Shown here: positions 56,259 through 59,885 of the stretch, one piece after another
Numbering within the stretch: the stretch's first letter is position 1
Layout of the letters: every line of letters begins with the position of its first letter
DNA from: an uncultured Acidobacteriota bacterium
GTDB taxonomy: Bacteria > Acidobacteriota > Thermoanaerobaculia > UBA5066 > DATFVB01
DNA: 64,000 nt
Direction of reading: 5' to 3'
Assembly (NCBI GenBank): GCA_963813155.1
Contig: CAWEYG010000002.1
Coordinates: 32,001-96,000, forward strand
The notes under the pieces: generated by a model
What the model was told of the DNA's origin: nothing
Databases searched by the model: none
Seen by the model: only the letters and a program-made list of their open reading frames with translations
Translations under genes and position numbers: made by a program

Positions 56259-56786
56259 ATGAAGAAAAATTGTCTTTTTACGCTCTTTGCGGCAATCTTC
56301 GCGCTCGCCATTTTCCGTTCCCTCGCGGCAGCGGTCCCGTCCGAGCCGCTGAAAGTCGGCGATGCCGCTCCGAATGCCGCGTCGGTCGACCAGGACGGCA
56401 AGCCCGTCCAGCTGTCGGACCTCTACGGCGGGGGGTGGACGCTCGTCTATTTCTACCCGAAGGCGGACACGCCGGGTTGCACCGCGGAAGCGTGCAGCCT
56501 GCGCGACGCGTTCGCGGACCTCACGAAAAAGGGCGTCACCGTCGTCGGAGTCAGCGCCGACAAGCCGGCCGAGCAGAATGCGTTCAAGCAGAAGTATCAG
56601 ATCCCGTTCACTCTGCTCGCCGACTCCGACAAAAAGGTCATCGCCGCGTTCGGCGTGCCGACGACGATGGGCTTTGCGAGCCGGCAGTCGTTCCTCATCA
56701 AGGGCGGCAGGGTCGCCTGGCGCGACCTGCACGCTTCGACGAAGGAACAGGCCGCGGACATCCTGAAAGTCGTCTCGGCGCAGTAG
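56259..56786 (+). CDS. Peroxiredoxin (BCP/PrxQ) with signal peptide
   Basis: YFYPKADTPGCTAEACSLRD motif; hydrophobic N-terminus. Confidence 0.9.
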   Translation: MKKNCLFTLFAAIFALAIFRSLAAAVPSEPLKVGDAAPNAASVDQDGKPVQLSDLYGGGWTLVYFYPKADTPGCTAEACSLRDAFADLTKKGVTVVGVSADKPAEQNAFKQKYQIPFTLLADSDKKVIAAFGVPTTMGFASRQSFLIKGGRVAWRDLHASTKEQAADILKVVSAQ

Positions 56787-59491: not shown

Positions 59492-59854
59492 CTACTTCCT
59501 CAGGAGCAGCTCCAGCTCGGCGCGGACGTCCTCCATCTTCACTCCGTGGTCCGCCTGCTTCCAGAGGACCTTCCCGTCGGCTGACCGGATGACCAGGCCG
59601 TGGCTCTCGAATCCGAGCGCCTTCACGATCTTCTCGTTCTCCGGCGTCGTCGCGTCCACGTTCTGCCCGCGGACTTTCCCCTTGTACTCCTGCTCGAGCC
59701 CGCTCACGGCAGGCTTCACTTTCGCGCAGATCGGTCAGCCGGGCATGTAGTAGTACGTCACCTCGAGGGGAGTTCGCTTCTCGTGTTGTGCGGCGCCGAG
59801 AGCCGCGGAGAAAAGAACCAGGGCTGCCAGGAACAGGTTGCGTCGAGTCGTCAT
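59492..59854 (-). CDS. Secreted thioredoxin-fold selenoprotein (UxxC), 120 aa
   Basis: GGAGG RBS, signal peptide, VTYYYMPG-[TGA at 59735-59737]-PIC-AKVKPAV..LEQEYKGKV; frame continuous into the 75-aa ORF of the track. Confidence 0.82.
59697..59715 (-). promoter_or_regulatory. Candidate bacterial SECIS hairpin
   Basis: AGCCUGC-CGUGA-GCGGGCU; loop starts 26 nt after UGA, with G at loop position 2. Confidence 0.65.
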
Positions 59855-59885
59855 GAAACCTCCGTATTCGCCGAGCATACGCTCC

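Follow-up and report, generated by a model that had tools for sequence, protein, structure and literature searches.

The question raised by this locus is whether a TGA codon that interrupts a thioredoxin-like reading frame on the minus strand of the window (the whole 64,000-nucleotide stretch analysed here) terminates a short peptide or encodes selenocysteine (Sec) within a single exported protein and, in the latter case, what such a protein would do. The frame runs from 59854 to 59492 and comprises 39 codons, the TGA and then 80 codons up to a TAG at 59492. The residues V-T-Y-Y-Y-M-P-G directly precede the TGA (59737–59735), and P-I-C directly follows it. An earlier note on this DNA had described a GGAGG sequence, an ATG at 59854 and a signal peptide, as well as an in-frame TGA at codon 40 followed by PIC and an open frame; all of these were found in the sequence. 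Another in-frame ATG is situated 8 codons 5′ of that at 59854, and for most of the close homologs the start corresponds to 59854. The features of the locus are as follows.

59492..59854, minus strand: coding sequence, 120 aa if the TGA is selenocysteine, comprising a signal peptide and a thioredoxin-fold domain
59859..59863, minus strand: GGAGG, Shine-Dalgarno-like, 4 nt 5′ of the ATG, as seen in the sequence
59789..59854, minus strand: predicted signal peptide, about codons 1–22, with a twin-arginine-like n-region (Tat-type pattern in homologs; tatC present)
59735..59737, minus strand: TGA codon 40, inferred selenocysteine, first position of U-P-I-C (TGA in 145/148 loci, TGC in 3/148)
59726..59728, minus strand: Cys43, second residue of the UxxC motif (Cys in 148/148 loci)
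59697..59715, minus strand: putative SECIS hairpin, 7-bp stem, loop CGUGA at 59708–59704 (covariation, frozen codons)
59597..59602, minus strand: His85-Gly86, predicted to lie at the Ile/Val-cisPro site of thioredoxins (conservation and profile alignment)
59546..59548, minus strand: His103, predicted to lie where E. coli thioredoxin has Ala93, at the far side of the active-site groove (conservation and profile alignment)
59492..59719, minus strand: 75-aa fragment called with translation table 11 from an internal GTG start

The last of these entries is the truncated product that gene callers had been expected to report. A protein search with the gene product returned 809 matches, and 117 of the best 120 are pieces of 71–81 aa; N-terminal pieces of 38–45 aa are also recorded in the databases as proteins of their own. 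The codon at 59735–59737 is spanned by one contig from run X1, a possible source sample, and by one contig from run X2, with no difference at that position. Given the agreement of these contigs, an assembly error at the TGA is unlikely.

The host genome contains the machinery that selenocysteine insertion requires, as the earlier note had proposed to check. The genes selA (456 bits), selB (351) and selD (332), as well as tRNA-Sec (71), all score above curated cut-offs; the tRNA has the anticodon TCA, and selD itself carries one TGA. TGA is the commonest stop codon of this genome (217 of 373 long ORFs), which excludes its global reassignment. When genomic TGAs were filtered for coding-like codon use on both sides, the family TGA ranked first of the 19 that passed and a peroxiredoxin with T-x-x-U ranked second; the filter is not a census, since selD was missed by it. 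The co-occurrence of the gene with selA was also considered as evidence and set aside as uninformative, since selA scores above cut-off in 148 of the 151 genomes of the class, including all 17 that carry the gene.

A BCP-type peroxiredoxin gene containing T-P-G-U-T, with a 9-bp hairpin 17 nt 3′ of its TGA, lies on the minus strand near position 460782 of G000:C3 (locus L212) and is another selenoprotein of the host genome. A Cys paralog of that peroxiredoxin is situated within the window, at 56259–56786.

Searches at the DNA level matched 130 loci. Removal of one locus without column 40 (L040) and of 21 exact duplicates left 108 distinct close homologs, with the window locus counted, and TGA is present in all 108. 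The named members of this set are mostly Thermoanaerobaculia or other Acidobacteriota, and the rest are metagenome contigs. In searches of whole genomes, the gene was found in 17/151 genomes of the class and in 21/401 genomes of the phylum, with TGA every time, and in 26/301 genomes of the phylum of Cystobacter, which we take to be the Myxococcota. It was found in 0/101 genomes of the phylum of G515, a set without a positive control, and a plasmid search gave no match. Over the family as a whole, TGA is present in 145 of 148 distinct loci, TGC in 3, and Cys43 in all 148. One partial locus (L209) and one ordinary thioredoxin with Pro (L210) were dropped from this tally and from the Myxococcota comparison, and an unpublished genome (G004) enters the locus counts as a single row, with no claim resting on it alone. 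Of the two protein alignments, A2 is A1 minus P0003, P0122, P0139, P0177, P0207, P0213 and P0241.

At the column of the TGA, 41 database representatives have Cys in 32 cases and W in 4, and the motif has been lost in 5. One of the W rows (P0009) hardly differs from a TGA locus (L062), which makes it probable that the W residues represent TGA codons translated as Trp by the databases. The placement of the TGA at the first Cys of a CxxC motif, as originally claimed, is thus borne out by homologs of both kinds: Cys occurs at the column in these 32 representatives and in the three TGC loci, and TGA recurs in independent genomes. A quick tree of the family, with 50 of its 90 inner branches open, suggests that the Cys forms of the Myxococcota were derived from Sec forms.

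Two further groups of members were observed. Five full-length exported members (P0128, P0139, P0166, P0180 and P0189) are without both Cys, and in some of these a trace of the P-A-V-x-G peptide specified by the hairpin survives, which hints that they descend from a Sec gene. In one branch of the Myxococcota (L187, L189, L190 and L192–L206) an additional Cys close to the C-terminus is conserved, and Gly39 is replaced by an aromatic residue; the additional Cys might act as a resolving cysteine or as one more ligand.

The earlier note had also pointed to a 7-bp hairpin with a CGUGA loop, 26 nt downstream of the TGA. All of these elements are present (59715–59697; 7 pairs; –10.5 kcal/mol), but the hairpin alone was no evidence until covariation had been shown. 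Its stability was rejected as an argument: the fold of the 68-nt stretch is no better than that of shuffled sequences (z –0.22), and such hairpins are common in this GC-rich genome, where an equally qualifying one occurs at 218 of 1921 sites that combine a TGA with a Cys motif. A search of Rfam over 801 bases gave 0 matches at E ≤ 1.

Comparison of the homologs is more informative. At the four fourfold-degenerate codons within the hairpin, a single codon is used in 91–100% of the 108 loci, vs 41–83% at 16 comparable codons elsewhere in the gene. Codons 48–52 are frozen, with P-A-V-S-G encoded there in 104/104 close homologs bar one Ala-to-Thr change, and nearly all hairpin variants among the 108 loci keep the pairing. 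In the 32 distinct variants, 94.2% of cells are paired, compared with 25–45% in slid controls, and 5 of the 7 pairs have changed on both sides. Shuffle counts for this covariation are not to be read as probabilities, since the structure was taken from the window sequence and the relatives are not independent. RNAalifold, unaided, returned the same 7 pairs, and in L191, L205 and L208 double changes in the stem alter the amino acids on both sides. In the three TGC loci few stem pairs are left, and the two genomes from which these loci derive still have selA. Thus it is comparison across homologs, not stability, that indicates that the hairpin is a real SECIS element.

PMC13188914 gives as the bacterial SECIS consensus a loop of 3–9 nt, a stem of 4–16 bp, a G in the first two loop positions, a spacing of 16–37 nt and an energy of –7.5 or lower. 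The hairpin agrees with each of these constraints, having a loop of 5 nt, a stem of 7 bp, G and U at loop positions 2 and 3, a spacing of 26 nt and an energy of –10.5. It does not differ in kind from that consensus, and it visibly dictates the protein sequence at 48–52. A variant was seen in the Myxococcota. In 7 of the 22 Myxococcota Sec loci (L198–L200, L202–L204 and L206), the loop is CGUGC and just 3 of 5 inner positions pair in register, and these loci may use a bulged stem. For them, a rival hairpin further upstream has the higher predicted stability; a non-canonical SECIS is possible there.

The presence of TGA in 145 of 148 loci, the frozen synonymous codons, the compensatory changes and the top rank among 19 genomic TGAs place recoding beyond chance, and these comparisons indicate that UGA40 is almost certainly read as selenocysteine through ordinary bacterial Sec insertion. 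That the TGA is instead a true stop, or a Trp or Cys codon, yielding a 39-aa peptide and a separately started protein of 71–75 aa, or a pseudogene, is very improbable: both pieces are entered in databases as proteins, a GTG codon lies within the conserved hairpin loop and W occupies the column in four representatives, but a stop would part strand 1 from the rest of a single domain in the AlphaFold2 model, homologs with Cys are undivided proteins of full length, covariation of the stem extends to cases in which the amino acids change on both sides, GTC replaces the loop GTG in two Sec loci, the TGC forms are without the hairpin, the anticodon of tRNA-Sec is TCA, and W row P0009 has its near-identical TGA counterpart.

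An AlphaFold2 model of the protein has a mean pLDDT of 91.5, and its best structural matches are thioredoxins (Foldseek E about 1e–5). Alignments to thioredoxins with VIA-align gave Z values of 12–13.6 and rmsd values of 1.7–2.2 over 85–89 residues, the top match having a Z of 13.6 and an rmsd of 1.7 over 87. The predicted structure has the four-stranded sheet and three helices of the thioredoxin fold class, with UxxC at the start of helix 1.

An export signal is found in every family member, and that of the window protein begins T-R-R-N-L-F. A crude Tat-type pattern is matched by 53 of the 104 close homologs for which a start was found, vs 4 of 122 signal-like ORFs of the genome, although these kin are not independent. 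In two other groups of the family, the Tat-type pattern is present in 1/15 and 1/25 members and a lipobox, also by crude patterns, in 7/15 and 15/25; many relatives have one Arg. The host genome contains tatC. Export to the cell envelope is very likely, to judge from the signal peptide, possibly by the Tat route in the lineage of the window and by lipoprotein or ordinary signals in other lineages. Recoding and export, taken together, are highly probable on these sequence data. The earlier note's reading of an exported 120-aa selenoprotein is therefore supported, the tests of the codon, the sel genes and the Cys homologs all having been favourable.

The active site departs from that of thioredoxins. 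Each of His85, Gly86 and His103 is present in 140 of 141 distinct Sec proteins from two phyla, and the exception is consistent with the frameshifted L034. In a profile alignment to the host's own thioredoxin (probability 98.8; per-column confidence 4–6 in the C-terminal half), Gly86 corresponds to the cis-proline, His85 to the preceding Ile and His103 to the Ala of the Gly-Ala loop. In E. coli numbering these are Pro76, Ile75 and Ala93, respectively, the mapping of His103 being of lower confidence than that of the N-terminal half. HMMER alignments agree on the placement of His85-Gly86 to within one residue. Among the 41 representatives, Gly is found at the cis-Pro site in all 41 and His103 in 32. 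It had been noticed earlier that the usual cis-proline is missing, and this stands, with Gly86 aligned to the thioredoxin Pro, but the near-invariant pair of His residues had been overlooked. From these alignments, the signature of the family is U/C-x-x-C, His85-Gly86 at the Ile-cisPro site and His103 at the Ala93 site. Both His are retained in 29 of the 36 representatives with an intact CxxC-type pair vs 1 of the 5 without one (P=0.014, a value that overstates the association since 4 of the 5 CxxC-less rows fall in one branch).

It was of interest to compare the family with those already catalogued. The suggestion that it is uncharacterized agrees with searches of Pfam and NCBIfam (June 2026), in which the window protein reached the cut-off of no curated model. 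With Cys scored for Sec, PF00085 gave 19.6 bits (cut-off 23.5) and TIGR01068 gave 14.5 (cut-off 96.8). Among 45 aligned members, matches to thioredoxin-type models are weak, except in outliers that are ordinary disulfide isomerases; the strong matches to metal-domain models each come from a single member, an HMA fusion; and no NCBIfam selenoprotein thioredoxin model matches better than E=7e–4. The Sec-containing thioredoxins and glutaredoxins (UxxC; PF00085, PF00462; PMC13188914) share with the family the fold, the UxxC at the start of helix 1, and the UGA with a 3′ SECIS inside the coding sequence. The family differs from them in being exported, in having no Trp before the motif, and in its Gly at the cis-Pro site and two near-invariant His.

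HUIPC (NF047660), SaoT (NF040730) and VPGUxxT (NF041383) are likewise small thioredoxin-like selenoproteins that are often truncated in annotation. The locus is not matched by NF047660 (cut-off 105 bits), whose sole match in the genome is an ordinary thioredoxin at 14.7 bits; NF040730 matches 3 of the 45 members, with a best E value of 7e–4; and NF041383, which has UxxT, gave no match at E ≤ 1. ArsF (NF040494) has the same small thioredoxin fold and matches residues 40–103 weakly (E=0.0017; 18.7 bits, or 16.5 in a second scoring, below the cut-off of 60); 2 of the 45 members match it, and no arsenic operon adjoins the family gene. The SCO1/SenC copper chaperones are exported proteins of thioredoxin fold in which a metal is held by two Cys and a His, with a CxxxC motif and one His in a peroxiredoxin-like insertion. 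By comparison with that general description, the family has a U/CxxC motif and a second His, and the insertion is absent.

None of the 119 families in Table 1 of PMC13188914 corresponds to it in motif or model, although the thioredoxin rows of that table, at Pfam and CDD level, are broad. BSepDB (PMC13326102) contains 111 families, and its loose tblastn could have filed members of the family under thioredoxin. No description of the family was found in a search of the literature outside subscription papers. It is apparently an uncatalogued thioredoxin-fold family, set apart by motif and models from those in Table 1 of PMC13188914; its recoding mechanism is ordinary, and thioredoxin is the commonest selenoprotein fold.

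No conserved operon was detected around the gene. Neighbours vary freely in the 108 close loci, the largest neighbour cluster comprising 13 of the 108, and 96 neighbouring ORFs that were scanned, of 223 listed, are heterogeneous and include no recurrent metal genes. The gene stands alone, its surroundings changing from locus to locus. In the window, it is flanked by a small gene in the same orientation, which four other loci share, and by an unrelated Arg/Gly-rich ORF; no sigma-70 promoter was found for it, nor any terminator directly 3′ of it. The following were also observed near the gene. On the minus strand of the window (61658–59886), a thermolysin-family (M4) protease frame is without a stop at its usual end, and a 110-codon, repeat-containing linker follows that runs into a separate conserved 142-aa gene (60314–59886), also situated beside the selenoprotein gene in L034, L108, L109 and L114; this run-on likely reflects a lost stop or an assembly slip. 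In L171 (G464) and L172 (G265), an exported AhpC/TSA-family gene split at its active site lies directly upstream on the same strand, with W-U-P-Y-C seen in the G265 gene; this is a two-selenoprotein pair in one genus. A gene with a receiver domain and a pyridine nucleotide-disulfide oxidoreductase domain converges on the family gene in L110 (3821–4960). The PF13557 barrel encoded upstream of the gene in three close relatives (L013, L024 and L089) was judged incidental, being an ordinary barrel with a signal peptide and without an in-frame TGA pair at its start.

What, then, would the protein do? In the proposed scheme, the hairpin 26 nt 3′ of the UGA would recruit SelB with Sec-tRNA, UGA40 would be read as selenocysteine and the resulting 120-aa precursor would be exported to the cell envelope. 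There, Sec40, Cys43, His85 and His103 would form a site for a soft metal of the Cu, Zn or Hg type, and the role of the protein in the periplasm would be to bind this metal, to buffer it or to pass it on, the selenolate serving as a ligand; oxidation of the UxxC pair might serve as a switch for metal release. To this reading as a whole, that of an exported selenoprotein with a predicted Sec-Cys-His-His soft-metal site rather than an ordinary protein-disulfide reductase, we assign a probability of roughly 0.4.

An ordinary periplasmic protein-disulfide oxidoreductase, thioredoxin- or Dsb-like, from which the cis-proline has merely been lost would accord with best structural matches that are all thioredoxins and with the likeness of U-P-I-C to C-P-x-C active sites. 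It is nevertheless unlikely, as PMC2757866 describes conservation of the cis-proline among thioredoxin-fold groups as exceeding even that of CxxC, yet Gly replaces it in all of the representatives and His residues stand at both of the substrate-contact positions. In E. coli thioredoxin, Ile75 and Ala93 touch the partner in 4 of the 4 complexes tabulated in PMC10812433.

The predicted metal site is favoured by the replacement of the cis-proline with Gly and by the near-invariant His on both walls of the groove. PMC2757866 and PMC6210436, with reference to Su et al. (2007), report that metal binding is hindered by the cis-proline and that mutation of this residue enables human Trx1 to bind an iron–sulfur cluster; this rule is not absolute, since certain thioredoxins bind a cluster despite their cis-proline (PMC6210436). 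The joint retention of His and Cys in the representatives, whose rows are not independent, also supports the metal reading, as do fusions in distant members, one to a heavy-metal-associated domain (P0207) and two to the Cys-rich DUF6370, and the His-rich tail of P0217. Several observations count against it. Just 3 representatives among the 150 listed are fused, and these belong to distant Cys branches rather than to the Sec branch; searches of longer proteins, which are weak tests, found no fused forms, although the search for representatives did reveal them. No metal transporter, chaperone or resistance gene recurs beside the gene, Tat-type signals are rare in the other groups, and a peroxiredoxin-like selenoprotein lies upstream in two related genomes. 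In addition, UxxC selenoproteins are mostly thought to be redox catalysts, according to PMC13188914.

Nearly as likely as the metal reading is that the same selenoprotein is a metal-free, histidine-assisted reductase of the envelope, its two His acting as a proton relay or as binding residues for a small oxidized substrate. That substrate could be a peroxide, a sulfoxide, or a halogenated or metalloid compound, and Sec40-Cys43 would be re-reduced by a DsbD/CcdA-type system. That UxxC opens helix 1, as in redox thioredoxins, agrees with such a role, as do the weak match to ArsF, a nitroreductase subunit, and the peroxiredoxin-like selenoprotein upstream in L171 and L172. Histidine-assisted catalysis beside a Cys or Sec is also known from AhpD and the deiodinases. 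Peroxiredoxins, too, replace the cis-proline, in their case by a catalytic Arg (PMC2757866). Arguing against the reductase are the lack of a linked gene for a dedicated reductant among the 108 close loci and 96 neighbouring ORFs, and fusion partners that are of metal type rather than reductase type. Two His and two chalcogen ligands, moreover, make up a classic tetrahedral ligand set. Tentatively, then, the data suggest a widespread envelope family of the Acidobacteriota and Myxococcota in which a thioredoxin may have been turned into a Sec-Cys-His-His metal chaperone or redox-gated buffer.

These results correct a systematic annotation error, in that hundreds of database entries are pieces of one gene, and they add to the catalogue of bacterial selenoproteins a family from abundant, mostly uncultured bacteria. 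They also provide an unusually clean comparative case for a SECIS: compensatory changes are seen in two phyla, and the hairpin is gone from sister Cys forms in genomes that keep selA. The natural Cys counterparts allow a direct comparison of Sec with Cys. If the histidines bind no metal, the protein would be one further redox selenoprotein. If they do, the family would offer a natural model of 100 residues for what the cis-proline of thioredoxins prevents, and for what selenocysteine gains over cysteine as a metal ligand.
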